A stretch of 64,000 nt of DNA, taken from assembly GCA_905178155.1 (NCBI GenBank), contig CAJINV010000010.1, positions 583,851 to 647,850 on the forward strand, read 5' to 3'. This stretch comes from Amoebophrya sp. A120. Its lineage: Eukaryota; Protista; Dinoflagellata. The translations under genes were made by a program, and so were the position numbers. How positions within the stretch are numbered: the stretch's first letter is position 1; each line of letters starts with the position of its first letter. Positions 1,204 to 63,972 of the stretch are shown here, one piece after another. A model generated the notes under the pieces. That model did not search any database and was not told where the DNA came from. It was given only the letters and a program-made list of their open reading frames with translations.

Positions 1204-4200
1204 TCAGTACGTCACGAAAGACGACGGTTCCGGTGTGTCAGCTTGCTCCGCTGATTCGACGTCGTTCAAGCGGTCCATCTCATTGAGCTGCGTCGTCCAC
1301 TCCGACTCTTCCTGTTTCTTCACGCGCCGCACGTACTTGTTCAGGGGCGTAGAGTTTTTGATTTTAACGCCCCCCGCCTCCGCGTCCTCCTGTTGTCCTT
1401 GGTGCTCGTCCTGCTTTTGTTTATTCGCATTGACACTTCTGTCCACGTTTACGTCCGCCGATTCGACAATCTCGGCACGATCGTGGTCCTGGCTGTATCC
1501 TGAGTAAAAACCTCCCCACCTCAGAGTTAAGATGGGAATTTCGCTACACAAATCAACACGTTCTGGCTGCTGCGCATGACAAATTTGGCTCGTAGTGTGA
1601 GCCCATTTAGGTAGTGAAAGCTGCATAACAAATCGCCCATCTTATCCTGCTTCTAGCATGACAAGTTCCCAGGCAGCCATAGAAAGCGCTGCTTTGTGGC
1701 TCCTGCGCATGAGAAACATTTTCGGCATGCAGATGTGCATTACAAACCTGGTGCGGGGACCTTTTTACAGAGGATAGGCTGCCTTTGCTGCTCATTTTTT
1801 CCTCCTCCTTCGCATTTGTTGACAACGCCCCGGCGGTGGCCGCGGGGGGTTCTCCACTACGATCATCATCAAAACTGCGATCATCGCACACTGGCGCCGT
1901 GAAGATCATCTTCTTCTGCGAGGTCGTGGGTGAGCTACTTGAGGCTGACGTAGCTGGCCCGGAGCTGCTGCAGGCGCACATCCGACCGCCGAGTGTGGAG
2001 TTCTCAAACGTTACATTCTCAACTGTTGCAATGCAACAGTTGAGAATGTAACGTTTGAGAACTGTAATGCAAGAATGGCAAAAGTGAAAGGAGGCAGATT
2101 GTGCCTTTTGCATTACAAAAAATTCGGGACGAATTCTAGTGCTATTTAGTGCGTCGAGAAGTTGTCATGCGAAGAAGGCCTGACCGTCTGACGAGTGAGA
2201 GCGCTCTTGCATGACAAACCATGTAACAGCTGAGAATGTAACGTTTGAGAACGCCATACCGAGGCTTTCGGCGTTGCTCTCGATCACGTCCAAGGTCGAC
2301 GCCAGGGCCATGGAAGGGCTTTTGGTATGAAAGTGCACAACTGCCCCTCCCCCTCTTTTGTCATGCAAAATCCTAAATCCAGCTGCTGCCTTGTAGCACT
2401 GTTTGCATGACAAATTCTGCAAGCCCAAACAGTATGAAGATCGCGCCCGGAGGGCGATATTGGTAACCAAATGCGTGCGCGAAAATCAAACCAGCGCGAA
2501 AGCCAAACCAGCCGCGCGGCGAAAGCGCGGCCCTGCAGGCCGCGCTTTCGCCGCGCGGCTGCCACCACCATTTTTTTTAATTAGAATCCCACTTCTTCTT
2601 CTTGAGCCGCGGGCCGCAGTTTGCGGGTCATCGGGGGCTTCCGGATTCGCATTCAAAAGGGCCGCGGACGACTACTGTCGCCCGCGGCGGCCCGCAGGCT
2701 CCTGCGATAAGCATTGAAGGCGAAATCCGGTCTGCTATTTCGCAGCGGGGCATCCTTTCTAGCCCCCTGCATGACAAACTGGCCTCCTGGCCAAGAAGGT
2801 ATGCGGAAAGCCGAATCTCCGCGGACCCTTCCGGGCCACCAAAATCGGGCATTTCAGACGCGGCGGAGGTGCAGGATTTGTGCCCACAAACCAGGGCAAA
2901 TAGGGATTTTGTGACATCCCTCCGCCCGCTTCTAATGCGTTTTTTTTTTCACAATCCCGATGGTATGGCGCGACCACGCGCCCGCCGGACCGCCCTTGGC
3001 GGCCAGTTTGTAAGCCTGCCGAGGGTTCTCGGTTTTTTTCAATTTTCGCTCTTTTTTGTGGTTCTTAGGTGGCCGAAGGGCTCCGGACATTTTCACCGAC
3101 CGCAGCTGCCTGGCAGTTTCGGAGCCTGCGGAGGGATTGCGCTTTTGCGCATTTTTTTCTCTTTTTCTGGTTTCCAAGTGGCCCGGGCGACCTGGACATT
3201 TTTACCGCCCGCATCTCCCTGGCAGTTTTGAAGCCTGCGGAGGGATTGCGCTTTTGCGCCATTTTTCATCTTTTTTCATTTTCCAAGTGGCCCCAGCGAC
3301 CTGCACATTTTTACCGCCCGCATCTGCCTGGCAGTTTTGAAGCCTGCGGAAGGNNNNNNNNNNNNNNNNNNNNNNNNNNNNNNNNNNNNNNNNNNNNNNN
3401 NNNNNNNNNNNNNNNNNNNNNNNNNNNNNNNNNNNNNNNNNNNNNNNNNNNNNNNNNNNNNNNNNNNNNNNNNNNNNNNNNNNNNNNNNNNNNNNNNNNN
3501 NNNNNNNNNNNNNNNNNNNNNNNNNNNNNNNNNNNNNNNNNNNNNNNNNNNNNNNNNNNNNNNNNNNNNNNNNNNNNNNNNNNNNNNNNNNNNNNNNNNN
3601 NNNNNNNNNNNNNNNNNNNNNNNNNNNNNNNNNNNNNNNNNNNNNNNNNNNNNNNNNNNNNNNNNNNNNNNNNNNNNNNNNNNNNNNNNNNNNNNNNNNN
3701 NNNNNNNNNNNNNNNNNNNNNNNNNNNNNNNNNNNNNNNNNNNNNNNNNNNNNNNNNNNNNNNNNNNNNNNNNTTTCTGGCCATTTCCCTGACCTTCACG
3801 CCTCCCGGCGGTTGCCCTATATGGTAACGGCAACTGCCTTCGCGCTGCGTTTGCTAAGCAATATCGCAAGCGCGCAGAGCGCGCGCGCCGGCTTCGTGGG
3901 CCGGCGCGCGCTCTGCGCGCGCGCGCGCACGCATTTGGTTACCAGACTACATTAGGCACATAGATTTGTCATGCATGGGCTCCATGTGCGCTAGTGTTTG
4001 TATTGCTGTTCATGCCATACAAACGAGGGGAGGGAGAGTTCTGCACTGTCATATTTGGTCGTCGCGAAACACTGGACGGGCGAGTCGGAAGCCTGATTTT
4101 TCGGTTTGAACATAGAACAAGACGAGTCGAGGGATTAATTAGCGATGCTGGCTACGGTATTGGTATAATCTTGCATAAACAACATTCATGAAGCCGATCA

Positions 4201-7998: not shown

Positions 7999-9802
7999 CT
8001 AATACCCGTAGAATTCTGCGTTCTTTCTTGGATACTGCTGCACAAGTAGTGCCACGCTGGTTTCTCGATCGGTTTCACACGCGAAGCAACGGCTACCAGC
8101 GCCATCACTGCTACAACCGGGCAAAACTACGCACTCGCCAGCTTTTAAAGTAATCGCGTCTACTACTTCTGTTCCCCCGACGCCGTCGCCTCCCCCATCC
8201 CCCACCTGCGTCAGTCGGGTTTCGCCCTCAATTTGAAACACCAGCGTCTCCACGCCGTTCTTTGGTAAGTCAATCGTTGCCGGCAACCCGATTTTGATGT
8301 TGAATTCCTTGTCTGGATGATCGCTTTTATCGTGGGCCGCTGCGGAATCATCTTCAGCACTACGATTTGCTTCTGTCGAACCATCCTTATCTGTTGCGCC
8401 GCGTGGTACTATTCCGCCAAACAGCGGCAAGGACTCTCCCGCTTGCAATCTTTGTCGATTTTCCCTTAGAAAGTCGGCCAGAAGAAACGGCTTCGGGACT
8501 GAGAAAATTTTCTGATTCACGGGAAATTTCGGCTCCTGACTGCTGTCCGTGGCTTCTTTCATTTTCTTCCCTGTGTTTGCTGTTGCGGACGCGTGCGGGG
8601 CAGCTGTAGAAGTAGTATTATCGCTAAACCAGCTAAACACGTTTTGGAAGTCCGTGGCCCGCGGGTCGTTTTTCGCACACTCCTCGCTGGACAAAAAGGC
8701 CTGTATATCCTGCGAAAAAACGTGATCACCTACCCGGAGATGTCAGATTAGATGTCATGCAAACGCGCATGCTAGAGATGTTTCTCATGCGGCTGTCCAA
8801 CATGAGAGGCATTTTCTCTATGGCTTTGTTTTGGGAATCTGTCATGCGCTAATCAGGATAAGAAAGATTGGATTGGTAAAATGCATCTGGACTAGCTAGC
8901 CAGCGGACTACGCAACTGCAGAGCCAAAGAACTTGTCATGCGTAACTCCCAAAAGTTATGATCAGGAGTTGTCTTGCAAAGTTCCCATCTTGATGAATCT
9001 GAGGTCGACGCGTGGGCGGCTCCGTTTTTACACAGGATACTTTACGACCGGTGCCAGGTCTTCCTTCAGGCTGCGGCAGTTAAAGAACCGCTCCCACAGA
9101 ATTTCGTCGATTTTCAACGCCTCCAGGTTCTTCTCGTGCTTCAAAAAGTCAAACCCCACGAAGTACTATCAAATGCAAGGGTGTCTGGGTCTGGAAGAGT
9201 CATGCAGTTTTTGCATGACGCAGAAGGTCTGGTATGGAAGCTCCAGCATCACAGGTCTCGAGAAGCTTCCGCAATGCCGAATCCGCATGATAATAGTCCC
9301 CATTTCGGTGACAAAAAGTAGGCAGCTTTTGCTACCTATGCATGAGAGATTTTTCTGTGTTCTGAAATGCGCATCACAAAGTTTGTATTCTTCCAGACCC
9401 AGACATATTTGCAATCCATAAGTACCGGAGGCCGTCCACTTCGTCCTCGTATCGTTCCCTCTCAACCACCAGCCCGAGGGAGCCCTCTTCCGGCCGCTGC
9501 GGGCTGTGGGGGATGCAGGAGGGGAGCAGAAACACCTGCCCTTCGTTAATCTCCACGATCTCCAACTGCTTGTTCGGCAGTATGATTGGCAGCTTCATGT
9601 TGCCCTTCAACTGGTAAAAGAACTCACTGCCCCGGTCGAGGTGGAAGTCCCTGCGCTTGTTGGGCCCACCGACAAACATTACCGTCATCTGGTTCTTGTG
9701 CATCAGCCGATTGCAAATCGGAGGTGCGAACTCCGCTTCGTGCTTCTTGTACCAGTCAAACACGTTGACGGGCTCGAGCAAACACTCCGACTCGATCCCC
9801 AT
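7999..9802 (-). CDS. HAAO: 3-hydroxyanthranilate 3,4-dioxygenase
   Basis: Motifs PPICNRLMH, VMFVGGPNKRRDFH, EFFYQLKGNM, EGQVFLLPSCIPHSPQR, GLVVERER..E.DGLRYFV, LWERFF; two introners removed; ATG at 9802. Confidence 0.93.
8706..9039. mobile_element. Degenerate introner family B in HAAO
   Basis: TAT..ATA; TSD CTGTA/CTTTA; removal gives LAPVVKAFLSSEE. Confidence 0.8.
9167..9420. mobile_element. Introner family A (TIR TATnnnnTGCAAAAATGTCTGGGTCTGGAA) in HAAO
   Basis: TSD AGTAC; removal gives DGLRYFVG. Confidence 0.92.
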
Positions 9803-10777
9803 GGTCTCGGTCGGTGGTCGTCCGATGGTCTCTTTTCTTCCTAGAGTAGTACTGGAATCTACTCGCCGTGAAGACCACAAAGACTTTGAACGGTCGTGGG
9901 GGGTTCTCAGGGTTTCATCTCTTGCTCGTCGTCAGTACGATACTACTTGATCAAAGTTATACTGTGAGTGTGATGGATATAATCTTCCAAATCGCTGAGA
10001 CCTGCAACTTGTGATCCTCGGGAAGACGGTAAAGAATGATCTCTTGCAGGAGTTCATCTTTTGGTACAAAGATTTTTCTGCTTAAAAAAATTATTCAAAA
10101 GCGAATTTGATCTCATACCAGAACCAGGTGATGTGCCCTTTTTGCATGAATACTTTAGCACTTTCTCGTCGGTGCATCAGACCACTCAACTCTACTGCTT
10201 CTCTCGGTCGAGAACATCATGACATGCATCCAATGATGGGGCCCCTGGTTAAATATGCAACGAACACTGCCTCATAGATAGGTGGTCTGAGAAAATTCTG
10301 CGAACACGGTAAGACAAGCAGGGACGCGATCACAAGTAGCTGCAACAGGATTGATGTGCAGGTACTACTCCAGGCGACCTATTATCAAGGGCCCTCCAAT
10401 TCCGATTAATTTTTTCTACGCGCAGGTGGAATACTTCAATGTTTTTCTAATTTTGTACACGACGAGCAGAAGGACTGCTACAATTTTCTCTACACAACTA
10501 CATGAGTGCACGACAATTTTTTCTCAAGTATCATACAGTCAGTTGAAGTTGCATACAGATGACTACCTGCCATCTTCGGCGTATTTTGTTTTTGACAAAT
10601 CTAAACCTATCCCTCGGCCAGTTCATTGGGTTGTTGTTTTCTCCATGAAACTTTGGAATTATAACGAGCTTCGCTTTTGTGACGAGACTATATTCTTGTT
10701 ATTTTGTCATGATGAAATTGATTTCAAAATAATCGACATCTTCTGTTGGGCGAGTTAGGCGCGAATAAATAAACTTT

Positions 10778-39549: not shown

Positions 39550-39555
39550 TCGTGC

Positions 39556-47000: not shown

Positions 47001-50000
47001 CATGGGTTATGCAAAATATGCATGACAAACCTGGCAATCTTCCAGACCCAGACATTTTTACACTTGATAGCAGCACTCGAGCGGCAAGTTCCGTTTGAAC
47101 CACAGCAACGAAATGACCGAGCCCACGCCGCGGCTCATCTGCATGATGTTGCTCAATTTCATGCCCCCGTACGTCACTTCGTCCCCCCTGTCGTCCGAAA
47201 TGCTGCACACCATGTTGGCCGGGTTCGGGCGCACTACGCCGAGCTTCTGCAGCGTCTTGAAGTCTTTGGGCACTTGCGGCACCTCCGGCTCCTGAAACAG
47301 GGGAATCTCCTTCTTTTCGAGCAATTGCTTGTAGATTTTGTTGATCTCCGTGCCGAGGGAGTCAAACGATCGGGGCACTGTGATGCCGTTCTGAAGTGAT
47401 ATGACCCGCTCAAACGTTAGTTACAATCTCAAACGTTACAATAGAATCTGGATTTTTTATTGCATGATGAGCATAACAGAACCGCACAGCGTTCCACTTT
47501 CTGCAATACAAATTTCGGATGATTTGCTAGTGCGGTTTGGGACTCCAGAATTTGTCATGCGCAATGCTGTGGGAGTAGGCTAGGCCATTCGCCTTTTGCA
47601 TCACAGATTTCCAGATTCTATTATAACGTTTGAGATTGTACTAACACCTGAGCAGGTTATAAGGGAGAGCGCCAGATTTTTTGCCTTCGCGGTTTCGCGG
47701 TCGGACCGGGATTATCAACTGCAAGTGTGTCTGGGTCTGGAAGAGTGCCAGACTTGTCATGCAGGTTTTCCATGACCCATGAGGTCTGGTATGTAAGACG
47801 TAGCATGGCAGATTCTGTCAAAGTTGTTCTATCGTGCCTATCCTGCATGAGAAACCGCCTCTCGATTGGCTCAAAAGTGGAGAACTTTTAGTAATCACGC
47901 AACACAGATTTATTTTACATGACTCAGATTTAGCATGACAAGTTGCTTTGTTCCAGAGGACCCAGACACTTCTGCTTTTGATAGGGATTGCGCCCCGGCG
48001 TGCCCGAACTGCATCTCGTCGCTGAACGCCGCTGCACAGGTATTCTGAGGAAAAACATCCCCACCCCAGAGTTGTCGTGCAAATCTGCATGCCAAAAAAG
48101 CTTCTCATGCGGAGCCCCATGCGAAGCATTTTGTCTTCATGTTTTGGAGTCAATTTGTGATGCTTAATCAGGGTTATACGCTAGGCCTGTGATGCTGCTG
48201 AACTAGCTGAACAGGACTACACTACGAGGACAAACTTCTCATGCGAAACAACCAACTCTGGTTGATTTATTGTCTAGCTGATTTTCCAACTTGACTATGG
48301 GGTGAGGACGTAGTTTTCAGACAGGATAACAGGTGCCGACACACCACGCGACCAGTGGCTTGGTGATTCGTTTGTCCTTGACCGCATCGAGCACCTCGTA
48401 CTCATCCAACCCCCCGACTTCCCCGAGCAACACAATCATTTTCACGCTCGGATTCCGCTGGTACCGCAGGATGTGGTCCAGAAACCGCGTGCCCGGATAC
48501 CGATCCCCGCCCACCGCCACGCCCTCGGCCACACCGTTGGTGTTGCGACATATGATGTTGTTCAACTCGTTGCTCATGCCGCCGGACCGGGAGACGTATG
48601 CCACAGACCCCGGACGGTATGGATTGCAAATATGTCTGGGTCTGGAAGAGTGGAACTTGTAATGCTGTCTGCGGATTCTAGAACTATCTGTGTTGCATGA
48701 GCAGCAAGAGGAGTGAGTCCTTGGCACGTCGCGGAGAGGGCATTTCTCATACGTGATTAGCATCAATAACCTCTCAAAAAATCTGTGATGCTAGCACCAG
48801 CATCACCGACCTCAAGGGTCATGCAAAATGTGCATGACAAGCCCCGACTCTTCCAGCCCCAGACATTTTTGCAGTTGATAGACGGTAAAGTTTCGACATG
48901 ATAATGTTTTCGATCGCGCCCCCGGTGTTGCTATCAAATGCAAACATATCTGGGTCTGGAAGGATGTAACTTGTGATGCTCCATTAGGATGCTACAAAAA
49001 TCTGTATTGCTTGAATAGCAAAAGAGGCCCAGTTCTTGCCACGGCGCGAGGGCATTTCTCATGCGGTATAGGCATTAGGAAGGCGTCACGAAATCTGTGA
49101 TGCTAGGGCATGCATTACAGACATCAGGAGTCATGCAAAATGTGCATGACAAACCAGACCCAGACACATTTGCATTTGATAGTTGCCGATGCGAAAGGCG
49201 CCCGGCTTGATGCCGCCCACGGTGGCAGGACCAATAATGGACACGCCCTTTGCCTGATGTTTTTGTATTTTATTGTTTGTGGGCGGTGCATTACGGAAGG
49301 AGGAGCAGCTGTATAGAGGAACACACATCACAAAAAACCGTGCTTTTGTAGCAACGTATATCATGAAAGTGATACATTCATAAAGAAGAAATTATACCTC
49401 CGCAAGGCAGATCAGTTCCCGAGTTTGTCGTTCCGGCATCCCCTCCGCAATCGCTTCTCCTGAGGAAAAACGCCCCCACCCCGAAGTTGTCATGCAGATT
49501 TGCAATTACAGGAACGTTTGTAATGCGCAGCCGCAGCCCCATGAGGCGCATCATTTTGAATCGCGTTTCTGCAGACGGGACAAGTAGATGGGTTTATTGT
49601 GATCCACGCCTGTCCTTCTATACGTACTATATTCTAAACTGCACTACCATACGGAGAGACACAACTTGTCATGCGCGAGTCCCAAAACTTCTGCATTTGT
49701 GTTGCAGATTTACCAATCATTGACTATCAGGTGGGGACGTTTTTGCTCAGAATATCACTGCAATGGTCTTCAACCGGCTCGAAAACTTCAGGGCCTCCAT
49801 GGTGGAATCGTAGCTGGACCGGAAGTATGCATTGCAAAAGTATCGTAGTCGTACTTCTACTAATTGCAGTCATGCATTACAAATCTTTTTCTTAAGGTAA
49901 ATCAGCACAACAAGTCATGCAATTCGTACTTGTACAAGAATACTTTTGCAATGCGTAGGAATGAAGCGAAGTTGATCATGAAAGACACCTCTGGGTGCTC

Positions 50001-53000
50001 ATCAATCGCGTCGGCGATGTTCGGGTACACTGGAATAAAAATTTCCTCTACGCTATCCTGTGTACAAACGTTCCCACCTCCCCAGAGTTCTTCTTGCCAT
50101 GCGGATTTGCAAGTACAGGAACATTTGGAACGCGCATCCCCACAAGGAGTAGAGCTATTTCCATCTGTGGTTGGAAATTTGCAAAAATGCTGCCAACAGG
50201 ACACAGAGATGGCTTTGTGCTGCGACTGTTATTGCTAACCTGCACTACAATACATAGTAAACCGAGAAATTTGAAGATGGCATGCGTGACTCCCCATCAA
50301 CTTTCCAGATTTGTGGTGCAAAGATCCTAACTTGACTATCATGGGGTCCTCGTGGGGACGTTATTTTCACGCAGGATATACGCCCCAGTATATAACCCGC
50401 TCAGGTGTTACAATCCCAAACGTTACAATAGAGTCTGAGATTTGTCTTGCATGATGAGCATGATCCAGCCAACTCTCATAGGGTTGAGCATGACAAGTTC
50501 CGGAGCTGTAAGCCCCACTACATTCTGGCGAAATTTGTATTGCAAAAGGTGGAACGCTGTGCGAGTCTGTCATGCCCATCATGCAACAGAAATTCCAGAT
50601 TCTATTGTAACGTTTGAGATTGTAACCTTTGAGCAGGTCATACAGTAGACCTTCATGTTCTGTCTCCCGCCGAACGGAAACACGACTGCGGAGACCGACG
50701 GCTTCTGCCGCCCGCAGATGCCGTCGAAGTCGAGCATGCGCTGGACCGCGGCCTGCTGCAGGTTATACACAATGCAGGTGGTGTCCTGGGTGGTCTCTTG
50801 CGTTTCCAGGGTCCGTAGTGGATAGAACGCGTGCGGGTGGCGCTCCGAGCCGGAGAGTATGCTGTGAAAATAAAGCGTGTACCATGTTCCGTCCTACATC
50901 GAGTGAGTATGCAAAGCCGGGCGTGGCTGTAGAAATTATATGTATATCTGCCATGCAAAAAATCCAAATTTTGTTCTTGACTGTCATACCCAGGAGGTCC
51001 TCTTGGACGAATCGAAATCGTGGTATACTTTTATTTTCACCGGATACTCAACCCCGCTTGATTATCCTTCGTAGGTGCGGAGCCGGGACTGGCGTCAACC
51101 TGCACAATTGCGGTTTTTTTTGGTCGTTTTGATGTGCTTTGTCATGCTAAAGAGGAACTACCAGAGGTAAAATCTACTAGATCTAGTACGTCATCTTTAT
51201 CAAACTTGTTTCATACTTTGCTGTAGTACACAGTAGGTTATGGTCCTCGATGTCGACAAAAACACCAAGAAATACTTCGTCCCCCAACACCCTCGCTGCG
51301 GCCACATTGTGCCGGATCATGTTGCTGGGCCGCCCCCCATATGAAATGCAAAAGTATCGTACTCGTATAACTATAAATGCATTACAAATTTTCTCAGCAT
51401 GAGAAATAAAATTTGTAATGCGGACTTACCTTGAGAAAGAGATTTGTAATGCATGTTTGCAATTACTACGACTGCGATACTTTTGCACAGGATACCCCAC
51501 CGATGCGCAGGTACTCGGCGGCATCCAGGTCGGGCTCTTCTTATCAAAAGGAAAATTCCCCCCTCCCCATATCGAAAACGAAATTCGCGATGCTGGATTT
51601 GAGTACACAAATCAGATTTTTCTTGCTGCAGAGGACTGCAGGCCCACTTCAAGCCTGAGTAGAGAGGTTTTGGCCTAGGCGCTTAGCATGAGAAACGTCT
51701 GCGCTGTAGGCCACACAGCATCACAAACCGCCTGCATAATGCGGCGGAGCCTGTGGAGTTGCCTTCTTGCAAGACAGAGATCATCTGTGGTCGCAAATCA
51801 GCATTGCAAATTTTCGGCGACGTACCTTTTCGATATGGGGAGGGGGAATTTTTCCGCGGGATACTTCTAACACCTCCATGAGGCCGAGAGACATCGGGAC
51901 GATGGTATCAAATACAAGAATCCCTGGATGTGTGGAAGGATGCCAGTTTGTCATGCTGCCTTTGGATTCGACAAAAATCTGTACTGCATGAGCAGCAACA
52001 GGAGTCCAGTTTTCGCTACACGGACAGGGCATTATTATATTTCACATGCGGTAGAGGCATGAGAAAGCCCTCGGAATAAAATCTGTGATGCGAGAGCATA
52101 CATCGCAGGCATCCTGGTCTTCCAAAATCTGCATGACAAACTCCTACTCCCATCCAGACCCAGACACTTTTGCAGTTGATAGATGGAAGTCATGTGCGTT
52201 TCGGGACCGTAGACTTTGATGGGCAGGCCGACGCTGGTGTATCAACTGTAAAAATGTCTGGGTCTGGAAGAGTCATGCTGTTTTTGCATGACACAGACGG
52301 TCTGGCATGGAAGCTCTAGCATCACAGGTTTCGAGAAGCTTCCGCAATGCCGAATCCGCATGACAAGTCCCCCATTTTGGTGACAGAAAGTGGGCAGCTT
52401 TTGCTACCTATGCATGAGAGATTTTTCTGTGTTCTGAAATGCGCATCACAAGTTGCATTCTTCCAGACCCAGACATTTTTGCAATCCATATGGTGACCGC
52501 GTCCTTGATTTTCCGCAACCCCTATCACGAGAAAAAAGTATTACAGTCACACACTCTGATGGAAGACAAGCAAGAGAGACAACCTCTGTCATGCAGGAAA
52601 TGCTTGCCAGCCTCATTTCTTTCGTGTTTTCCCTTATAGTCTGCGCATGACAGGTTTTCTTTGCCATGTCGAGCAACTTTGTGATGCAGAAACTCCAACA
52701 AGTGTGTAACTGTAACACTTTTTTCCTTGGATAACCCCTCGAGAAAATTCAGTCCCGCCCGGCGCACCCAGAAGGTGACTTTGTGGTCTTTTAACTCGTC
52801 GTATCGTACGAAAAAAGTGTTTCACTGTAGGGATTTTGCAAGTTCTGCATCACAAGTTTGTTCTACATCACAGAAAAAATTTGCCATGCGAGATTCCTCA
52901 GGGAAAAGTACACAGCTAAAAATCCATTGTCTTGCATGTGTAGCAAGACAAACACTTCCCAGATACATTTTCTGCATGACAAGTTTACAGTGAAACAGTT

Positions 53001-56000
53001 TTTTCTTGCGATACATCGGAGTACGCCTTGATCGCCTTGATCAACCCGGAGAAGTATCCTCTGCAAAAACGTCCCCACGATCCCATACCTGTGACGCAAA
53101 TCTGCATGCTGAAACTGTTTCTCATGCGGAGCCCCACGAGACGCGTTTTCTAGTCATGTTTTGGACGAATTTGTGATGCTCAAAGTGTAGCATGACATGC
53201 TGGATTCGTGATGTTCTTGTTGCACTAGCTCAACACGATGATTTTTACACTGCGTGCCCGAACTTGTCATGCGTAACAGCCAAAGGTTGTTGATTTGTCT
53301 TGCAGATGTCCCAACTTGACTATGGGGTCTATCTTGGGGGCGTTTTTATTCAGGATAAGAAGGTGCCCGCCACATCGGTAAAGTTGGCAATGCCGCCCCC
53401 GATGATGAACACTTTGCCTTCCGGCCGCTTCGTGCCCTTGGTGAGGAGCTGAAACAGCGTTTTCGCGTACTGGTACGTCTCGTCCGCGGTCGGAGCGCCC
53501 GAGTATATTGTGAGTAAAAACGTCCCAACACCAGAGTTGTCATGCAAATGCGCAATGACAGGAACATTTGTAATGCGCAGCTCCATGAGAGGAATTCCCA
53601 GTCGTGTTTTGGAATCTGTAATGCTGTAAACAGGATGCGAAAGTGGCTTTCTCATGTGGCTTTTCTAGCCAATCAGCACTACACTGCAGAGAGAAAAACT
53701 TGTCATGCACAACTCTCAAAACTTGGAGATTTGTGTTGCTAGATTCCCAACTTGACTATGGGGTGGAGACGTTTTTGCTTAGGATAGAGTATTCGCCGTA
53801 GTTTGCGAGTTCCGAACCGTACCCGAAATCCACGACGGTGTATCAAGTGTAAAAATGTCTGGGTCTGGAAGGTTGGAACTTGTGATGCTAACTTTGGACT
53901 CTAAAAAAATTTGTGTTGCATGACCAGCAATAGGAGCCCAGTTTGTGCTACGCGGGGAGGGCATTTGTCATGCGGGATAGGCATCAGGAAGGCCTCTAAA
54001 AATATGTGATGCCAGACCATGCATTACAGACATCATGGCTCATGGAAAATATGCATGACAAATCTAGAAATCTTCCAGACCCAGACACTTTTACATTTGA
54101 TACTGTGTCGGAGTAGACCACGGAGGCACCACCACTATCCTGTGCAAAAGTTGTATCGTAAACGTACTAATCGCATCCATGCATTACAGATTTCATTTAT
54201 TGAGGTAAATCCGCATTAGAGATTCCATTTCTAATGCTGAGGAAATTTGTAATGCGATTTATACTAGTATGATACTTTTGTAATGCATAACCACCCGCCA
54301 CCATCAACCACACGCGGCCGTTCGGGTTCAACACGGTCAATTTCAGCGACGCACCGGTCTTTTCGTCCAGCTTGCGGATAAAGGCCTCCTCGTATCCTAT
54401 GTAAAAGCGTCCCCACCCAAAAGTCAAGCTGGGGAGTCGGCTAGACAAATCCACAAGTTTTGGCTGTTTTGCATGACAAATTTCGACTAGTAGTGTAGTG
54501 CTGTTTGAGGTAGTTCATCAGCATCACAGATCTAGTATAGCATGATGATTGGAGCATGACAAATTCCAAAACACGACTAGACAATGCTTCTCATGGGGCT
54601 CCGCATGAGAAACATTTTCAGCATGCAGGTTTGCATTACAACTCTGGGATGGGGACGTTTTTCAATACGATACCTCGGGAAATTCGTTGCGCCCAAAAGC
54701 GGTTGGAAAGTCCACCTCGCCCCACTTCTTGTCGCAGAGGAACGCGTATGCATTGCAAATATGTCTGGGTCTGGAAGGATGCAAGGTCTGTCATGCATAT
54801 TTTGCATGACCCCTGATGCCTGTAATGCTTTGCCTAGCATGACAGTTCTCTTGAGGGCTTCCTGATTCCTATTCGGCATGAGAAATGCCCTCTCCGTGTA
54901 GCACAAACTGGACGCAGCATCACAAGTTGCAACCTGCCAGACCCAGATGACATATTTGCATTTGATAACCCGGCCGTCTCGTCGATTTTTGCCGCGAGGT
55001 CCAGGGGCACGATCTGCAAGCCGCTGGCGGTTCGCGCGTCGTCGACGACACACAGAGGGTTGATTTCCAGGTAGCTGTAGTGACACTCGGCGTAGAGCTA
55101 TCCAAGAAAAAAACACCATCACAATCACATTTAGGAGGTTTTGCGTCAGAAATTAGTCTCGCATGACAAATTTTTCTTGTATTGCAAAAACACAAAGAGA
55201 AATCGCGTATAAGTCTTGACTGTGATGCATTTTTGCGCATGACAAAATTTTTTGTATTGCAAAAATGTGCAAAAGTGGTTGTGATGGTGTTTTTTTCTTG
55301 AATAAGAGCTCAAACAGGTTGCGGATGTACTCGGACAAAATTTTTTATGGGATTCTCAAACGTTACATTCTCAACTGTCACATGAATTTGTCATGCAAAA
55401 CTCTCATCAGTATCACTATCATCATGCTGCTTCGCATGACAAATTTTCAAAGGGCTAAAGAGCATCTAAATCTGTGCCGAACCTGTAATGCAAAACGCGC
55501 AATCTTGTTCACCCTTGCATTTTTGCCATTCTTGCATTACAAATTCATGTAACAGTTGAGAATGAACATTTGAGAAGGCCATATTTTTCGCCGGGACACC
55601 GGCACCTGGTGCAGCAGGTTGTCCAATTCGTCATCCGTCAGCTGCTTCTTCGAGTCCGTCTTTACCTTCAGCCGTTCGGCTTTCGCGTCCACGTCGCCGA
55701 TATCGACCCCGCCCTCGTGGTAAAAGAAGATCTCGTATCAAATGTAAAAACGTCTGGGTCTGGAAGCGTCATGCTGTTTCTGCATGACGCAGAAGGTCTG
55801 GCATGGAAGCTCTAGCATCACAGGTTTCGGAAGCTTCCGCAATGCCGAAACCGCATGACAAATCCCACATTATGGTGACAGAAAGTGAACAGCTTCTGCT
55901 ACCTATGCATGAGAGATTTTTGTGTGTTCTGAAATGCGCATCACAGGTTACATCCTTCCAGACCCAGACATTTTTGCGCTTGATATCTCGTCGTAGTACC

Positions 56001-57070
56001 GATCTGATTGGATCGCCACGTAGTACTCGTCCTCTATCCTGTGTAAAAACATCCCCACCCCAGAGTTGTCATGCAGATCTGCAAGCACAAGCGCATTTGT
56101 AATGCGCATCCCCATAGGGGGCATTTCCCAGCGTGTTTTGGAACTTGTAATGCTGTAAACAGTATGGGGAGATGGATTTCTTATGCGGCTTTCCTTGCTC
56201 AACTGCACTCCGCTACAGCCTGCAACTTGTCATGCGTGACTCCCAAAACTCCAAGGTTTGTGTTGCAAAATTCCCAGCTTGACTCTGGGGTGGGGACGTT
56301 TTTACACAGGATATCCTCTTGGTTGTGTTTCAGGAAGGGCTCGATGAGAAAATGGGTCAGAACCCCTGTCACGTTCTCGATCGTGTATCCCACGAAAAAA
56401 GTGTTACAGTTACACATTTGTAGTCAATTCAGCAACACAAATTTCTCTGCATGAAAGAGAAAACTTGTAATGCACAAATCCTACGGGAAAACACCTATGA
56501 AACGAGGCTCCTATGCATATCCGACATGACAGAGCTTATCTGTCTTGCTTGGCCTGCGACACAATGTGTGAATGTAACCCTTTTTTCTTGCGATATCGTG
56601 AGCTCCTTGTGCAGTCGCTCCGTGATCCATTCATTGCACTCCTCGAAGGTGCAATTCACCTTGATCAGACCGGCCTTGCCTCGTCGCTTGATCAGCTGGT
56701 CGGGCTTCACAACCAGCTTTTCCGTCTTCAACCAGGGATGCTTGGCCAGAATCTCATCCCATGCGAAATCTGTTTTGTTTTTGTGTCATGCAATATGAAA
56801 AAAAAACATTTGTGGTCATGCGGGTGGTGATACAAGTAAGTACTTCAATGCAAAAACAGAATCTTGGGGAGCAGACAATCATGCCATAACTCTGCTCCCC
56901 AACAGGCATGCAGTAGAAACACGATAGAAGTGATAAGTACGGATATCCGAGCTCTGCCACAGGGACGGAGTGACCAGGACACCTTTGTACTCCGCGTTGT
57001 CGAACGGTGCCTTCAGGTTCTTGTAAATCATGCATTTGCCATGATACTCGCGTATCGCTTTCACCGACAT
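44038..57070 (-). CDS. ACLY: ATP-citrate lyase, single fused chain; 33 introners plus at least 2 GT-AG introns
   Basis: Reconstructed [174 protein letters not shown]; stop TGA at 44038-44040; GT-AG introns 56770-56940 and 49254-49397; linker 50.85-51.3 kb not fully resolved. Confidence 0.97.
44152..45099. mobile_element. Introner family C with a nested minisatellite-rich insertion of about 0.8 kb
   Basis: TSD TGGTC; removal gives [16 protein letters not shown]. Confidence 0.9.
45141..45351. mobile_element. Introner family A (degenerate)
   Basis: TSD GCCGG/GCCAG; gives FVLARSIG. Confidence 0.85.
45431..45643. mobile_element. Introner, E-related
   Basis: TSD CTTTC; gives DMLRKCGAF. Confidence 0.9.
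45777..45989. mobile_element. Introner family E
   Basis: TSD CGCTG. Confidence 0.92.
46040..46335. mobile_element. Introner family D
   Basis: TSD GTTTG; gives NPDKRVEIL. Confidence 0.9.
46447..46613. mobile_element. Degenerate introner family C
   Basis: TSD GAACT/AAACG; gives TKAFDKAI. Confidence 0.8.
46808..47069. mobile_element. Introner family A
   Basis: TSD GCAGC; gives ECCQFMEM. Confidence 0.92.
47400..47661. mobile_element. Introner family G (TIR TATnACCnGCTCA..TACAATCTCAAACGTTA)
   Basis: TSD AGTGA/AGGGA. Confidence 0.88.
47713..47983. mobile_element. Introner family A
   Basis: TSD GGGAT. Confidence 0.9.
48041..48328. mobile_element. Introner family B
   Basis: TSD ACAGG; gives VGTCAAAF. 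Confidence 0.9.
48618..48880. mobile_element. Introner family A
   Basis: TSD GACGG; gives KLYRPGSV. Confidence 0.92.
48932..49181. mobile_element. Introner family A
   Basis: TSD GTTGC; gives RIGNTGG. Confidence 0.92.
49456..49754. mobile_element. Introner family B
   Basis: TSD TCGCT/TCACT; gives TIAVIAEG. Confidence 0.88.
49826..49957. mobile_element. Introner family C
   Basis: TSD GGAAG/GGAAT; gives NFASFRSS. Confidence 0.88.
50054..50378. mobile_element. Introner family B
   Basis: TSD TACGC. Confidence 0.88.
50391..50642. mobile_element. Introner family G
   Basis: TSD CAGTA. Confidence 0.92.
51340..51494. mobile_element. Introner family C
   Basis: TSD CCCCA. Confidence 0.9.
51542..51863. 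mobile_element. Introner family D
   Basis: TSD CTTCT. Confidence 0.92.
51906..52181. mobile_element. Introner family A
   Basis: TSD GATGG; gives HMTSIVPM. Confidence 0.9.
52240..52490. mobile_element. Introner family A
   Basis: TSD TGGTG. Confidence 0.92.
52523..52733. mobile_element. Introner family E
   Basis: TSD ACCCC; gives FLEGLRKI. Confidence 0.9.
52802..53013. mobile_element. Introner, E-related
   Basis: TSD CGTCG/CATCG. Confidence 0.88.
53055..53357. mobile_element. Introner family B
   Basis: TSD AGAAG; gives AGTFSGLI. Confidence 0.9.
53506..53786. mobile_element. Introner family B
   Basis: TSD GAGTA; gives GEYSGAP. Confidence 0.92.
53841..54102. mobile_element. Introner family A
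   Basis: TSD CGGTG/CTGTG; gives YSDTVVD. Confidence 0.9.
54136..54289. mobile_element. Introner family C
   Basis: TSD ACCAC; gives VAGGGASV. Confidence 0.92.
54393..54672. mobile_element. Introner family B (opposite orientation to the copy at 56035)
   Basis: TSD CCTCG; gives FPEEAFI. Confidence 0.92.
54747..54967. mobile_element. Introner family A
   Basis: TSD ACGCG/ACCCG. Confidence 0.88.
55099..55304. mobile_element. Introner, E-related (TIR TATnCAAGAAAAAAACACCATCACAA)
   Basis: TSD AGAGC; gives LFELYAEC. Confidence 0.9.
55346..55583. mobile_element. Introner family F
   Basis: TSD TTTTT; gives RRKILSEY. Confidence 0.9.
55736..55985. mobile_element. Introner family A
   Basis: TSD TCTCG; gives [11 protein letters not shown]. 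Confidence 0.92.
56035..56313. mobile_element. Introner family B
   Basis: TSD TCCTC; gives NQEDEYYV. Confidence 0.92.
56386..56595. mobile_element. Introner family E
   Basis: TSD TCGTG; gives KELTIENVTG. Confidence 0.92.
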
Positions 57071-58201: not shown

Positions 58202-61200
58202 CTACCCTCCAACTGGCGTCGTACCTTGATGCCCGCCACCACGACTAGCGCCGCCTCCTCCCGCTGCCATCAACTTCCGTCTTCTTAGTTCCTTTAAAGC
58301 GAAAGTTTCTTCCACCGTGACCGTCTGGATTCCCGTGTCGATATCCAGCAGCGCGTGCTGCATTTTTCCGATATTATTCCTGTTTCCACCCCCGATGCCA
58401 CTCATCACGCCCCCCGCTGCACCGCCACAGCTTCCTGGCATGCCAGTGTAGCCCGCTCCACCTCCTCCGTTTTCTAAATCCTCGAACAGCAGTATGACAG
58501 TGCACAACTCCCCCTCCTTCTAATTTGCAACAGCAATACAAGCGTCAGCAAGAATACAGGTTTTGCATGACAAATTTGGACCACAGGCGTGTAGTGCTAT
58601 TTGGGCTGCCAGAACTTGTCATGCAAACAGTGCCAAGAGCCCAGGCGTAAATTAGGCACTTTGCATGACAAAGCAGGGGGAGGGGGAGTTGTGCACCCTC
58701 ATAAGCAGGGTCTGCGCGTACTCCAAGAGCATCGCGGCCGCGGGCTGGATTATTGCAAGGAAAAATCCCCCCTCCCCATATTGGAAAAGCATCTTTCTGA
58801 AAATTTGTGATGCAGATTTGTGGCCACAAATCGGGTCTGTCTTCCAAGAAGACACATTCAGGCTGTCCGCCAAGTTATGCAGGCGGTTTGTAATGCTGTA
58901 AGGCCTACAGGGTAGCCGTCTACCATGCTAGGCGCCTACAGCAAAAGGCCCCCGCTTAGGCTCAGGACCTGCGCGCACTCCTCTGCTGCAACACAAATTT
59001 GATTTGTGGATCCAAATCCAGCATCAGAAATTTCGTTTTGATATTTGGGCAGGGGGATTTTTCCTTGTGATATGGATCCGCCGCACTTCCGCCACATGGA
59101 GCTGCTGCGCCAGCCGGACCGCGTTTTCGTAATTTTTGTCCGTGATGAGATTTGCGTGGAGGAAGACAAGCTCCATGCGCAGGGTCTTGGTCAGCACCAA
59201 GTCCTTCAGCGTGGCCCACGCGTATCATATGTAAAAACGTCCTCACCCCATAGTCAAATTGGGAAATCTGCAAGACAAATCAACAAGCTTTGGCTGTTGC
59301 GCATGACAAGTTTTGGCTCGGAATGTAATGTTGCTTACCTAGTGTAGAAGCATCACAAATCTAGCAGCTCATGCTCATTCCAGCATCACAAGGTCCAAAA
59401 CACGACTAGAAAATCCTTCTCATGGAGCTCCGCATGAGAAACATTTTGAGCGTGCAGAATTGCATGACAACTACGGGGTGGGAATGTTTTTACACAAGAT
59501 AACGCGACACCCGAGTTTTGAGTCGAAATGCGGCTGTCCCCCGAGGAGTTGTTGTATTGGCTTATCAAATGTAAAAATGTCTGGGTCTGGAAGAGTTCCA
59601 ACTTGTCATGCTAAGTCTGGATCATGCAAAAATCTGTCTTGCGTGATCACCAAAAGTCGCGCTTTTTTGATCAACACGAGAGGCAGTTTCTCATGCAGGA
59701 TAGGCATGATAAAGACCTCGCAAAATCTGTCATGCTAGGTCTTGCATTCCAGACCTCTTGGGGCATCGAAACTTTGCAGGACAAGTTTCTATTCTTCCAG
59801 ACCCAGACATATTTGCATTCGATATGGCTCGACGAGGAACTATTGTTGCTCTCACCAACATTCTGGTCGGTAGTAACATTTCTGTTCTGCGTGTAATTGT
59901 TGTGTGCCATCGTGTTTTGGGGATTCAGTATCCGGGAACTCGCCAAGATATCCAAGGCGGAATTACCGCTCGCTTGGTAGGAGGAACTGCTGCGATGCGG
60001 ATTCGGGTTCGATCCTGCTCCTCCTCCCGCCCCTCCGACGGTATAACCAGTACCTTCTACTTCCCCGGCGGAACCACCAGAGCCTCCTCCATTTCGCATC
60101 ACTTGGTTGAAAAGTTTTTCGTTCAGAACTTGGCAGTTTTTCAGCAAGCCAACCAACACAATCACTTTTTCCACCAAGACATGTGGGTGCTTCAGTTCGC
60201 GCAGAGACTCGAGATCCTGCTTCTGGAAGTTTTGCAGAATCTGCTCGTTGATAGCCATCTGGTCCATATCGGGGGCCTCAAACAGCTTTTCCAGAAACGC
60301 ATCTGGATCAAAGTACCCGGGGAAAGTGGACGTTCCTTCGTCCGAGTGAGGATTGCCATTCGCAGTGGAAGATGATGATGAACTACTACTATTCACAACC
60401 CCTTGTTGCATTTCCAGCTGCAAGTGGTATTTGAAGTGGTTTTTGCTGTACTTCTGCCTTTTTACCGGTTTTATCAAGTGCAAAAATGTCTGGGTCTGGA
60501 AGGATGCAAGGTTTGTCATGCACATTTTGCATGCCCTAGCATCACAGATTTTACGACGGCTTCCTGATGCCTATACCGCATTAGAAATGCCCCCTCATCA
60601 TGGCAAAAACTGGACCTCTTTTGCTGTTCATGCAATACAGATTTCTTGTAGAATCGAAATCCAGTATCACAAGTTCAAACCTTCCAGACCCAGACATTCT
60701 GCAATGCATAGGTTTCGGCAACTCCGGTAGTTGCACACTGTCGGACAGGGAGATCGAGGTGGAGTGCCGTATCCTGAGTAAAAACGTACCCACACCAGAG
60801 TTGTAATGCAGATTTGCAGTTACAGGAAGATTTGTAATGCGCATCCCCATGAGAGCCATTTCCAATCGTGTTTTGGGATTTGTGATGCTGTGAACAGGAT
60901 GAGCAGATGAATCTGTGATGCGGCTGCACTTTCTAACCTGCACTACACTACGGAGTGCAACTTGTCATGCGTGACTCCCAAAACTCCTATGTTTGTGTTG
61001 CAAAATCCCCACTCTGACTCTGGTGTGGGTACGTTTTTACTCAAGATATGCCGTTGGTGGAGGTCTTTCTGAGCTGTAAAAGTCGTGCTTTGATGTGCAC
61101 TGCCTGACATAGCTGTCCCTTGATGTTGTGACGGCTTGCTGCTGCTCCGGTTTGACAGAATTGCTGAACCGGATTTCGTCATACCGCCAGGGCCTGAAGA

Positions 61201-63972
61201 CGGTGGTCCCGCTGGTGAAGGACCTCCTGCTGTACCTGCATTGCTGGCCGTGCTGGCCGACCCTGACCTATTCGCTGTCGACTGCACAGTAGAGCCTCCT
61301 CCAGCAACAGCGGTGTCTGCTGCTGAACCTCCACCATTATTGCCGCCTTTGGTCGCAGTACAGCCGCCCTGGTGCGACAGGGAAGATGAGGATTGCGCCC
61401 CGGACGAGAGGCCGCCAAAACTAGCCCCGCCTCCTGCTCGGGAACTTTTGAAGATGATTTCCTCCTTCCCGACGATCTCCTCTAAAAGCTCCTTAGCCTG
61501 CTGCACCACCTGCGGGATCAGAAAGGTCGGGATAAAGTTGCTCGCACTCAAACTCGCGTTGCTGTTGTCCAATTTTTCGGGATACAACGACTTGACCCGC
61601 TTCAGCGTCACGAGAAGAATCACAAAATCAAACCCGTCCTTTTTCTCCAACAACTCCAGCAATTTTTGCCCCACGGCGCAGGATTTTCCCTTCACCTGCA
61701 TCATGGGCAGTTCATCGTGGTTGTTGATGTTGATGCCATCCTGCTTTTCTTCGCTACCGAGGTGAGGCTCTGCTCTTGCTGTGGTGGAAGTAGTTTCGTT
61801 TTCATTCTCATTCTCCTCCTTCGGCAAGTAAGCCGACAGCGCCGTTGTTCCCGCCCGGTAAGCGTACGAAATGTGACTCGCCGCATCGTATCAAATGCAA
61901 AAATGTCTGGGTCTGGAAGCTTCTGAGAATTGTCATGCAAGTTTTGCATGAGCCATGATGTCGGTGATGCATGCCCTAGCATCAGAGATTTTTTGAGGGC
62001 TTCTGGATGCATATCCATATTCCGCATGACAAATGCCCTCTTTCCGTAGCAAAAATTACACTCCCTTTGCTGCTCATGCAATACAGATTTTTTTGGAATC
62101 CAAATGCAGCATCACAAGTTGCATCCTTCCAGACCCAGACATTTTTGCATTTGATACCTCGAAGCGCCGGTCGCGCATCATCAACGGTATTAGAGAGGGA
62201 ATGATGTCCACGTGCGGAATCCCGCACACGTGCGCCTGCAGCTCCGCCGCTACTTGGCCACCGGTAGAACTTGTAGTTGCTGCCAGCTGCACTTTTCTGC
62301 GGCTGGTGGATACCAGACTGCACAGGGATTTTTGCAGGTCCCGTTTCTGCTCCAGGTCCTCGTCGGCGTCCTCATTGACGGAATGGTTAAAGTTGTCATG
62401 CGCTGAAGTGTCAAATTGTGTCGAATAAAACTTCGACTTCTGGTCGTCGCCGAAAATTTCCTGCCCGGTACAGGTGAACGTCATGGAGTGTTGCTGGCTG
62501 TCTTCCGGCATGAAAGAATTTTCCTCCATCGACTGCTGGTGATGCTGGCAACTATCGTCCATCAGCGAGGAATCGTGATACCCGCGGCCAATTGCCTGCA
62601 GGTCGTTTATCGCAGAGGAAGATGATATCGCAGCTCCTGCTCCAGAGCTATTTTTTCGCCGATAATTGTAGCTTGTTCCACTACCAATCGCATCTGATGT
62701 TGTTGCCGTAGTTGACATAGTACCAACTTGCGCTGCGGAGTTCAGATTGTAGTTCCGCTGCTGGTTCATCTGCAGCCTTGCGTGTTGATCTGTCGGGAAC
62801 AAATTTGAGGAGGTGTGAAACTGCGACTGCGAATTGGTGTGCGAAGAGGAGGACAACTGCCTGTTTCTTGCAGTGGTGCCGCCGCTCGTGGGGCTCATCC
62901 AGAACGCTTCCAACTCCTCGCTGGCGGAAGAAAGCGGTACCTGCTCGTATGAACTCGCCTCGGTCAGAATTGTGTTTTCCCGATTCAAGTGCATGGATTG
63001 TTGCGACTGGGTTAACAAGACGCTGGAAGACTGGTTCACACTGGCGCCGCCACCAAAACTGAAGTCTTCCTCCGAAAGGAACAACTGGGGGTTCTGGTGC
63101 TGATGGTAGTTGTTCAACATCCCTCGAAGATTCTTGGAGCCGCGCCGTGGTGGCGAAAGGTGGTTCATCTGCTGCTCTTGTTCTGCAATAGCCCCGGTCG
63201 AATGATTCTGCAGTGGTTCTCCGCGTCCTCCAGTACATTGTTCTGCAGGGTAAAGAACTCCTACGGTGTGACCTGAAGACACTGCTCTTCCCGCGCCAGG
63301 AGGAGCGCCTGGAGGTCCTTCTCCAGAATGATTCGCTAGAAGCTCAAGCTGTTGACCAGCACCACCTCCGTTGCATGCAATTCCAGCTCCCGAAGTAGAA
63401 CCTGCCCGGGCTCGCTCCCGACTCTGTCGGGTGCTGCTCAGCAACGGCGCGCGCCGGTGGTAAGGCTTGTCTTTGAATAACGTGTTGACGTTTTCCCGAA
63501 TCAGTTTTGATTTGTCCACGACTACCTCCTCGTGGAGGTCGTTTTTCTCCTGAAGATGCTGCAGCTTCTCCAGCGTGTTTTGCACATCCTGTTCGACCGA
63601 TTCCCGGCTCTTTGCAAATTTATCGAGAACATCTTGTTGATCCCAAGAGGCATTAACGCCCGCGCCGTCGCTAGCATCTTCGTTTCTTGTAAACGAATTT
63701 GGGATTTGGTCCCCGCTTTGCTGTTGCTGTATAGTGCGGCTCTCTACTTCTTGTTCCAGATCATATCGTTCGTTCGACGCACTTCTCCCCGCCCTCAAGT
63801 TGTCGTGCGGTTCTAAGCTCTGGCTTTGGCCTTCTGTACTCAACATCTGCTGCTGCATCTGCGCTTCCTCATCACAGGGCGTCGCGTAGAAAATGTCCTC
63901 ATCGTCGATGACAGAGGAAGTTGCGAATCCGAGGTGCGACGAGGCGTTGTGATTGGTATAGTTGCTACTCAT
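58202..63972 (-). CDS. Large hypothetical protein with a low-complexity N-terminus and 7 introners (3' end uncertain)
   Basis: ATG at 63972 and a first exon of about 600 codons; downstream ORF pieces join across introners (e.g. VAEVRRIQPAAAMLLEYAQTLLFEDLE). Confidence 0.65.
58493..58703. mobile_element. Introner family H
   Basis: TSD AGCAG. Confidence 0.9.
58751..59072. mobile_element. Introner family D
   Basis: TSD TGGAT. Confidence 0.92.
59223..59501. mobile_element. Introner family B
   Basis: TSD ACGCG. Confidence 0.9.
59563..59824. mobile_element. Introner family A
   Basis: TSD TGGCT. Confidence 0.92.
60472..60710. mobile_element. Introner family A
   Basis: TSD GGTTT. Confidence 0.92.
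60770..61048. mobile_element. Introner family B
   Basis: TSD TGCCG. Confidence 0.92.
61889..62156. mobile_element. Introner family A
   Basis: TSD CATCG/CCTCG. Confidence 0.88.

Follow-up and report, generated by a model that had tools for sequence, protein, structure and literature searches.

A single short motif recurs inside mostly unalignable families of introners in the dinoflagellate Amoebophrya sp. A120, and its copies are phased along the helix. We analyzed a 64,000-nucleotide stretch of this genome (the window; positions 583,851 to 647,850, forward strand, of contig CAJINV010000010.1 in assembly GCA_905178155.1), which holds 81 TAT...ATA inverted-repeat elements of the A120 introner type, most of them with 5-bp target duplications. 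Because the motif is shared across mostly unalignable families, is more conserved than the spacers around it, is helically phased, and is strand-symmetric, its recognition on duplex DNA in some form is well supported, and judging from the sequence we consider such recognition highly probable. An earlier note on this DNA had proposed a common factor that binds phased sites on the duplex; the duplex part of that proposal stands, while the interpretation as a whole is partly supported. We lean, with reserve, toward reading the array as sites for a shared mobilizing protein that would line one face of the duplex and bend the element for transposition. One motif across families means that introners probably depend on a single trans-acting protein, for which the motif would be a bait, and it makes two questions directly testable: what moves introners, and what marks them for removal.

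One motif in many introner families

In the excerpted text of Farhat et al. 2021 (PMC7789003), A120 carries about 30,000 introners with non-canonical splice ends and no known transposase, and U1 is undetected; the inverted repeat is given there as TAT, seven variable bases, and at least three A's, bordered by direct repeats of 3 to 5 nt. The window elements show the same terminal signature and short direct repeats at their borders, with a 5-bp duplication that is perfect in 59 of 80 elements and has one mismatch in 14 of 80. They also have the features of miniature inverted-repeat, non-autonomous transposons, being short and noncoding, with terminal inverted repeats, a fixed-length duplication, and many copies. 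The GC content of the window is 51.0%, and the AT content of A120 is reported as 48.8% in the excerpted text of PMC12005148.

A finder that used terminal repeats and target duplications only, and was therefore blind to the motif, returned 65 window elements, one of which (26636) was discarded as false; 16 more were added by hand, some of them through orphan motif matches, and one from transcript lengths. A second sample came from metagenome contigs (prefix JACKZZ01) scanned with one terminal pattern, covering 12 of 64 parts and yielding 157 loci (0.71 Mb including overlaps). These loci contributed 402 elements of the same families, found without using the motif; the duplication is perfect in 319 of them (up to two mismatches were tolerated), and positions 11 to 13 are 85 to 93% A (the finder required TA[TC]). 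All statistics below refer to this sample of 482 elements from the window and the second assembly, not genome-wide, which is enriched for families whose ends served as the search pattern. Clustering placed 432 of 471 elements of at most 450 bp in 16 families.

The pattern GCAT[GCT]A[CG]AAA has 126 matches on both strands of the window, against 1.28 +/- 1.17 (maximum 5) in 100 dinucleotide shuffles, and 124 of the 126 lie within elements, which bears out the claim of one shared motif that is rare elsewhere. The two exceptions are at 2769, in a nested insert, and at 51138, in a GT-AG intron. The 77 window elements of at most 450 bp account for 114 matches (0.51 in shuffles). The consensus first proposed, GCAT(G/C/T)ACAAA, caught the motif in too exact a form: the matrix consensus is the looser W-GCA-W-[GCT]-ACA-RR-T (WGCAWBACARRT). 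Matrix sites occur at 17.4 per kb within elements versus 0.51 outside. At least one site is present in 79 of 81 window elements and at least two in 74, and in the motif-blind sets a site is found in all 64 retained window elements and in 400 of 402 from the second assembly. The typical element carries three to seven copies in either orientation. Two elements exemplify the array:

1574, 1623, 1656, 1707, and 1737 (span 1574..1746), plus strand: motif sites in the family 4 element 1496-1776
52286, 52319, 52358, 52412, and 52443 (span 52286..52452), plus strand, antisense to the host transcript: motif sites in the family 5 element 52240-52490

A sixth copy once listed in the first element, at 1543, is only a degenerate match, and the five in the second all score as sites although none is exactly one of the four 10-mers originally named. 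Sites also persist, as had been claimed, in elements whose terminal repeats have decayed (four at 8706, two strong ones at 22664). The motif may resemble the apicomplexan AP2-type palindrome and the HMG-box/POU composite site of animal enhancers; a literature search on the AP2-type palindrome gave nothing relevant among the matches listed. Rfam gave 0 matches.

The sites are helically phased

We fitted phase on the 16 family consensuses, with period and offset both free and 60 randomizations per setting. Of the adjacent gaps, 68 in all, 25 are direct pairs 31 to 33 bp apart, whose spacers in most families have no apparent relation to one another. The joint fit gives a period of 10.35 to 10.5 bp and an offset of 3.25 to 3.75, with a mean cosine of 0.44 to 0.64 versus null maxima of 0.19 to 0.33; the signal persists without the 31- to 33-bp pairs and with one family per end type. 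Spacings center on 10.45n+3.5 for convergent and on 10.45n-3.5 for divergent pairs, and opposite-orientation pairs (n = 69) have a cosine of 0.55 with the offset but -0.29 without it. When one group at a time is left out, the period stays at 10.40 to 10.45 bp and 9 of 10 held-out groups are predicted (0.49 to 0.92). A 16-bp lattice performs worse than 10.4 bp (0.40 versus 0.55; at longer range, 0.19 to 0.23 versus 0.47 to 0.48).

The phase extends through the element. For pairs 60 to 250 bp apart the peak is still at 10.4 bp (n = 111), and local modules stay in phase with one another (n = 132, P = 0.0002). Local hairpins therefore fail to account for the signal. The outermost sites, which begin about 30 to 55 bp inside the element ends, keep phase with the termini (n = 32, R = 0.53, P of about 1e-4), most clearly where they point outward (n = 22, R = 0.80). 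High-copy families show strong long-range phase; in 18 copies that are rare or decayed it is weak (0.15, P = 0.049). Helical phasing as first suspected thus holds in the sample, at 10.4 to 10.5 bp out to 250 bp, but family 4 and the decayed copies fit poorly. Family 4 is the one held-out group that is not predicted (-0.03); its best period is 10.1 bp rather than 10.45, and the element at 1496-1776, the first example in the earlier note, is a member of this family.

The symmetric, orientation-dependent offset suggests that all sites lie on one face of B-DNA whichever way they point. From the geometry, this common face would run through the centers of the GCA and ACA triplets, half a turn apart, as for one major-groove and one minor-groove contact. 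A helical period could also reflect chromatin architecture, in which phased sites position or exclude a packaging protein (a nucleosome or the dinoflagellate viral nucleoprotein) and so aid insertion or tolerance indirectly. The clustering of family lengths near 110, 150, 212, 260, and 320 bp would fit such a role, as would the tie of introners elsewhere to linker DNA noted in the excerpted text of PMC9860276. The motif, however, is information-rich and specific, unlike a dinucleotide signal, and its phasing to the termini points to the ends, which makes an architectural role hardly likely.

The motif is more conserved than its surroundings

We compared the bodies of the family consensuses with ends trimmed and motifs masked (120 pairs). 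The check on whole-length alignment came out as the earlier note anticipated: families are mostly unalignable, with 109 of 120 pairs at z of 3 or less, 11 above z = 3, and residual similarity above z = 4 in 8. The claim that the families are unrelated holds for most of them but fails for families 6 and 11, which are clearly related and share bodies, and for families 0, 1, and 5, which share inner inverted repeats. Changes private to one copy affect 390 of 12,535 core positions (3.1%) versus 2,709 of 31,944 spacer positions (8.5%), so the motif does not decay as fast as the flanking element sequence. Low mutability of the C in GCA was ruled out as the cause, such C's changing at 7.1% in spacers.

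These data bear on the possibility that a single ancestor with internal duplications left repeats that have no present function. Two features would be expected of such a history: the outer terminal consensus is common to all families, and the 8 family pairs above z = 4 retain similarity in their masked bodies. Yet 109 of the 120 pairs stay at z of 3 or less, cores are 2.7 times more conserved than spacers, and the number, order, and orientation of sites vary among families while the phase is kept. Shared descent by itself is largely refuted by the contrast between cores and spacers, and we give it scant probability.

Motif conservation shows no strand bias

Transcript strand could be assigned to 419 of 482 elements. 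Core positions change equally in sense sites (174/5,258; 3.31%) and antisense sites (177/5,583; 3.17%; P = 0.70), and families whose sites point one way are inserted both ways in genes (16:11 for family 4, 10:12 for family 5, 5:1 for family 10). The motif might instead act in RNA, either as a branch-point-like T-N-A-C core or through opposite copies that form a stem read by a splicing factor. Its core resembles the UnAy shape of branch points, a sense site lies 23 to 47 nt before the AG in two GT-AG introns of the window, predicted RNA folds pair 44% of site bases with those of another site, and opposite sites at gaps of 14 to 18 bp form local hairpins. A branch point would be expected on the sense strand only, near the 3' end, and with an invariant adenosine. 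We found neither: the would-be branch A (position 6) changes at 4.4% in sense and 4.8% in antisense sites and is G in 8% of sites, and the lack of strand bias makes a branch point unlikely. Families 4 and 5, whose strong sites point one way, are inserted both ways in genes, and minus-strand transcripts without strong sense sites are spliced (52240, 54393, and 55736, within contig record 9). A B-DNA period over 60 to 250 bp is not expected from RNA, and a weak reverse site lies inside just 4 of 25 direct pairs. We therefore judge an RNA signal quite improbable.

The inner inverted repeats differ in this respect. In the transcript sense, their mismatches are more often G-U than A-C (173:130, P = 0.016), and the outer part shows 184:172. 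This small excess suggests that the inner inverted repeats, not the motif, act in RNA.

Splicing of the elements and their host genes

When each element is deleted together with 5 nt, frames of 963, 1300, and 444 residues become free of stops. Four genes that host elements are as follows:

44041..57012, minus strand: host gene with a 1146-residue stop-free frame after removal of 34 elements (plus 5 nt each) and three GT-AG introns
18089..24411, minus strand: host gene with a 963-residue frame after removal of 13 elements
58205..63999, minus strand: host gene with a 1300-residue frame after removal of 7 elements; matches spliced contig record 10
8002..9931, minus strand: 3-hydroxyanthranilate dioxygenase gene with 2 elements

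The first of these has a Pfam CoA-ligase match, and we take it to be ATP-citrate-lyase-like. A plus-strand frame at 13025-14018 with one introner (13650) lies within an otherwise minus-strand gene block, and 24420-36400 is a 12-kb GC-rich stretch without introners and without a Pfam or Rfam match.

Transcript evidence comes from two contigs of run X6, taken as RNA by guess; in the raw RNA runs X9 and X10, repeats were matched by partial reads and exons were not covered. The X6 contigs lack 34 elements by summed lengths, with junctions seen directly only at the borders of aligned pieces. Among five gaps between pieces, three match outright (99, 243, and 54), the fourth (335) matches after a 144-nt GT-AG intron is added, and the fifth (1350) needs two GT-AG introns and a further 194 nt, assigned by subtraction to one decayed element:

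50858-51046: decayed element without a target duplication, with one strong site, inferred from transcript length

Its excision takes out 50854-51047. In the transcript sense, the cuts lie one base ahead of TAT and four bases beyond ATA, and this is the one informative junction. Removal from transcripts at non-canonical ends, as in A120 introners, is thus seen in the X6 contigs. Decayed elements between 21500 and 41480 would also be spliced, as their reading frames indicate. No frame of the siteless element at 14609 is free of stops, and the reading frame is restored once the element is taken out.

TA has been lost from the 3' transcript end of five elements: 1994 (TGT), 15754 (TGT), 21241 (GGT), 46040 (TCT), and 49456 (TCT). 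Two of the five gain an AG, and the 5' end varies at the third base only; the donor end may be more constrained.

Motif sites in GT-AG introns

Three GT-AG introns of the window bear on how far the motif reaches beyond introners:

51100..51275, minus strand: GT-AG intron without inverted repeats; exact motif at 51138; within a single-copy DNA contig
56770..56940, minus strand: GT-AG intron without inverted repeats; one site at 56781; within a single-copy DNA contig
49254..49397, minus strand: GT-AG intron, siteless control

A motif-blind gene model predicted 113 GT-AG introns and recovered two of the three known window introns exactly; RNA supports the three window introns only. All 23 predicted introns that resemble known families keep a site. 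Among the other 90, which have no recognizable element body, 28 carry a site versus 1.1 in shuffles and 62 carry none. Their sites are 24 sense and 19 antisense, and their terminal-arm scores equal those of siteless introns; five of nine direct pairs are 31 to 33 bp apart (P = 1e-5). Predicted introns of the window and loci L121 to L190 have donors that are mostly GTA followed by T or C (the model favored GTA) and 3' ends that are A-rich, not pyrimidine-rich.

That GT-AG introns lacking inverted repeats still hold sites leaves room for a second reading on duplex DNA. A host protein bound to the motif would label the intron body for removal during transcription, in a lineage in which U1 is undetected. 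Introners would spread by carrying this mark, and selection would preserve one or more sites, or a 32-bp pair, in each inserted copy. The abundance of sites on both strands of element-free introns, with their 31- to 33-bp pairs, speaks for such a mark, as do the retention of a site in all 23 element-derived introns and the presence of one in 36 of 37 introns of the CoA-ligase gene. Site-bearing introns also cluster in neighborhoods (Fisher P = 0.009), and the failure to detect U1 in A120 agrees with it, as far as the excerpted text of PMC7789003 goes. Yet 62 of the 90 introns are siteless, as are the window elements at 14609, whose removal restores the frame, and 39410. Several site-bearing introns show element remnants and may be relics of extinct families, opposite-orientation pairs in element-free introns are unphased (cosine 0.12, 15 pairs, P = 0.26), a duplicated gene has one such site broken in one of its copies, and these introns are predictions beyond the three with RNA support. 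On balance, a host mark seems to us possible though unlikely. Its fuller version is doubtful: whichever way the motif points on the chromosome, a host DNA-binding protein would take it as an intron mark and recruit U1-less excision, phased arrays would have let introners conquer the genome, and old copies turned GT-AG would keep the mark under selection. If true, intron definition would be written in duplex DNA rather than in RNA.

A proposed shared mobilizing protein

The reading toward which we lean assigns the array to mobility. One shared protein, a putative transposase or a host bending cofactor common to all families, would bind three to seven sites along a single face of the duplex and bend the 110- to 320-bp element until both ends meet for transposition. 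Labor would be divided, with the TAT ends and family-specific inner inverted repeats forming an RNA stem for splicing and the internal array serving mobility. Because an element with one strong site is excised, the full array is not needed for splicing, which favors a role in mobilization. The phase is tied to element ends and to high-copy families, and 62 of 90 predicted GT-AG introns are siteless. Core change is alike in exon-inserted copies (3.2%) and non-genic copies (3.8%; 21 non-genic only). An integrase-like enzyme would suit a 5-bp duplication.

Several observations weigh against this reading. Pfam found no transposase, integrase, or recombinase in 39 window frames (including those of 36773-39343 and 24.4-36 kb), only three weak matches below the cutoff; scans of the 0.71 Mb of second-assembly loci, of viral contigs, and of prokaryote genomes showed no transposase or autonomous partner; and none is reported in A120 by Farhat et al. 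in the excerpted text of PMC7789003. Element end patterns had 0 matches in viral contigs and prokaryote genomes, and paired motifs in viral contigs were no denser than background (120 scattered loci); the two multi-hit loci inspected are simple tandem repeats. Families 4 and 13 fit the phase poorly, the latter across its full length, and the phasing statistics are limited by some dependence among families and by the fitting of both period and offset. Sites in element-free GT-AG introns and their 31- to 33-bp pairs count on the same side, as do the RNA folds in which sites pair. Near the 3' end, change is rarer in sense than in antisense sites (2.65% versus 4.27%, P = 0.022), a contrast confounded with outward versus inward orientation; within the outward class both ends are equally conserved (P = 0.72). 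Core position C2 is changed in just 19 of 1,932 cases, under the 2 to 5% per-site mismatch of target duplications. With those mismatches as a clock, older copies gain 0.96 points in cores and 1.33 in spacers, and the ratio of 0.68 (interval, -1.7 to 4.1) fits neutral decay and selection in place alike. A strong site is kept in 12 of 17 family-less elements, versus at most 2% in a neutral simulation (curation was partly motif-guided). Core change is alike in exon-inserted copies (3.2%) and non-genic copies (3.8%; 21 non-genic only).

If the factor is only a mobilizer, introners show cleanly, in a eukaryote, a single-face, orientation-compensated array of sites that fills a whole miniature element. 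If it also marks introns, the array would offer a DNA-level route to intron definition. The motif is also a way to recognize old introner-derived introns that have lost their ends.

Elements of the window

The window elements, by family, are as follows:

1496-1776, 19763-20041, 20932-21210, 23695-23971, 48041-48328, 53055-53357, 53506-53786, 54393-54672, 56035-56313, 59223-59501, 60770-61048: family 4, ~279 bp, six sites in a single orientation
19421-19693, 46808-47069, 47713-47983, 48618-48880, 48932-49181, 51906-52181, 53841-54102, 59563-59824, 60472-60710, 61889-62156: family 0, ~262 bp
13650-13891, 15975-16226, 16682-16940, 18501-18771, 20596-20858, 41180-41432: family 1, ~252 bp
9167-9420, 40464-40713, 52240-52490, 55736-55985: family 5, ~252 bp, strong sites in a single orientation
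15754-15903, 21531-21669, 40032-40179, 46447-46613, 51340-51494, 54136-54289, and 44152-45099 with an insert: family 2, ~150 bp, sites + + - - at gaps of 18, 15, and 31
21241-21453, 45777-45989, 52523-52733, 52802-53013, 56386-56595: family 3, ~211 bp
14187-14503, 14955-15279, 19056-19377, 51542-51863, 58751-59072: family 6, about 305-322 bp
39556-39866, 46040-46335: family 11, about 305-322 bp
41485-41792, and the long copy 36773-39343: family 13, about 305-322 bp
4361-4586, 58493-58703, 2326-4053 with an insert, and the half element 12935-13052: family 7
1994-2258, 43602-43836, 55346-55583: family 9
23470-23626: family 12
47400-47661, 50391-50642: family 14
55099-55304: family 15
8706-9039, 14609-14858 (siteless), 15413-15697, 17351-17602, 17624-17828, 20058-20382, 21737-21982, 22664-22988, 36422-36720: family-less or decayed elements
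39410-39549 (siteless), 40245-40419, 40740-41081, 45141-45351, 45431-45643, 49456-49754, 49826-49957, 50054-50378, 54747-54967: further family-less or decayed elements

Lengths of the 402 elements of the second assembly (L121 to L277) cluster near the five values given above, in steps of about five helical turns; this sample is biased to three families. The 2.57-kb TAT element at 36773-39343 has a perfect duplication, family 13 ends, and internal repeats, with no Pfam match in its two longest frames. The family 7 introner at 2326-4053 is split at 2461-3944 by an insert of 1.5 kb that is GC-rich and has 15-bp terminal inverted repeats of its own, with TG...CA ends; the insert spans the N gap, and fragments of it recur at 33977-34072 and 34938-35002. 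The family 2 introner at 44152-45099 holds a 780-bp insert (44281-45060) without a Pfam match, which has a 77%-identical relative in the other assembly (L142:776-1573). Other long inverted-repeat elements are the TAC-ended, 866-bp L148:11405-12270, with at most one motif, and L142:505-1608, a TAT element of 1.1 kb whose four sites lie at one end; near position 2014 of L177, an intron with strong terminal repeats has no site. No pairs of copies with shared flanks were found among the 482 elements. The duplicated segments L146:1-7489 versus L155:3728-11220 and L133 versus L155 are 90% and 98 to 99% identical, and an introner common to L146 and L155 is 100% identical despite differing flanks, through either assembly collapse or constraint.

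Comparison with known systems

The window elements share TAT-type inverted repeats, short direct repeats, non-canonical splice ends, and division into many families with published A120 introners (Farhat et al. 2021, PMC7789003; Gozashti et al. 2025, PMC12130899), which in the excerpted text of the latter are mostly classed as terminal-inverted-repeat DNA elements of unknown superfamily, among 22 of 58 table rows. The excerpted text of both articles, supplementary figures S19 to S25 lying outside it, treats the ends only and mentions no shared internal motif, phasing, or carry-over into GT-AG introns. No description of the motif was found in the introner literature searched, in part as excerpts, with subscription papers, theses, and figures outside its scope, and the array is apparently undescribed. 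An integrase-like element with terminal inverted repeats from the same type of genome (A120 family 38, excerpted text of PMC12130899) is a candidate mobilizer.

Euglenid nonconventional introns likewise show terminal pairing, duplication-like repeats, non-canonical ends, and an unexplained excision machinery, but they belong to an unrelated lineage, and the excerpted text of PMC11282704 mentions no internal DNA-phased motif. In its working, the introner array would resemble two kinds of transposon more closely. At the left end of IS1535, of the IS607 family, a transposase filament, which brings the two ends together, is nucleated on phased motifs about 20 to 60 bp inward (PMC6188088, in excerpt). 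The introners share helically phased subterminal motifs with it; IS607 elements, however, are bacterial, lack terminal inverted repeats and target duplications, and have direct repeats one turn apart, whereas introner sites are mostly at least three turns apart, take both orientations, fill the element, and are common to many families. The hAT elements Hermes and Tol2 also carry many short sites of mixed orientation inside their termini, bound by a multimeric transposase, but their repeats are variably spaced rather than phased, and Tol2 makes an 8-bp duplication rather than the 5 bp seen here (PMC6188088 and PMC8151067, in excerpt). Because inverted repeats and a 5-bp duplication are both present, the introners belong to neither family. 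Phased internal sites in a miniature transposon are thus of a known kind; what is new is their sharing across families, their single-face, two-orientation geometry, and their carry-over into ordinary introns.

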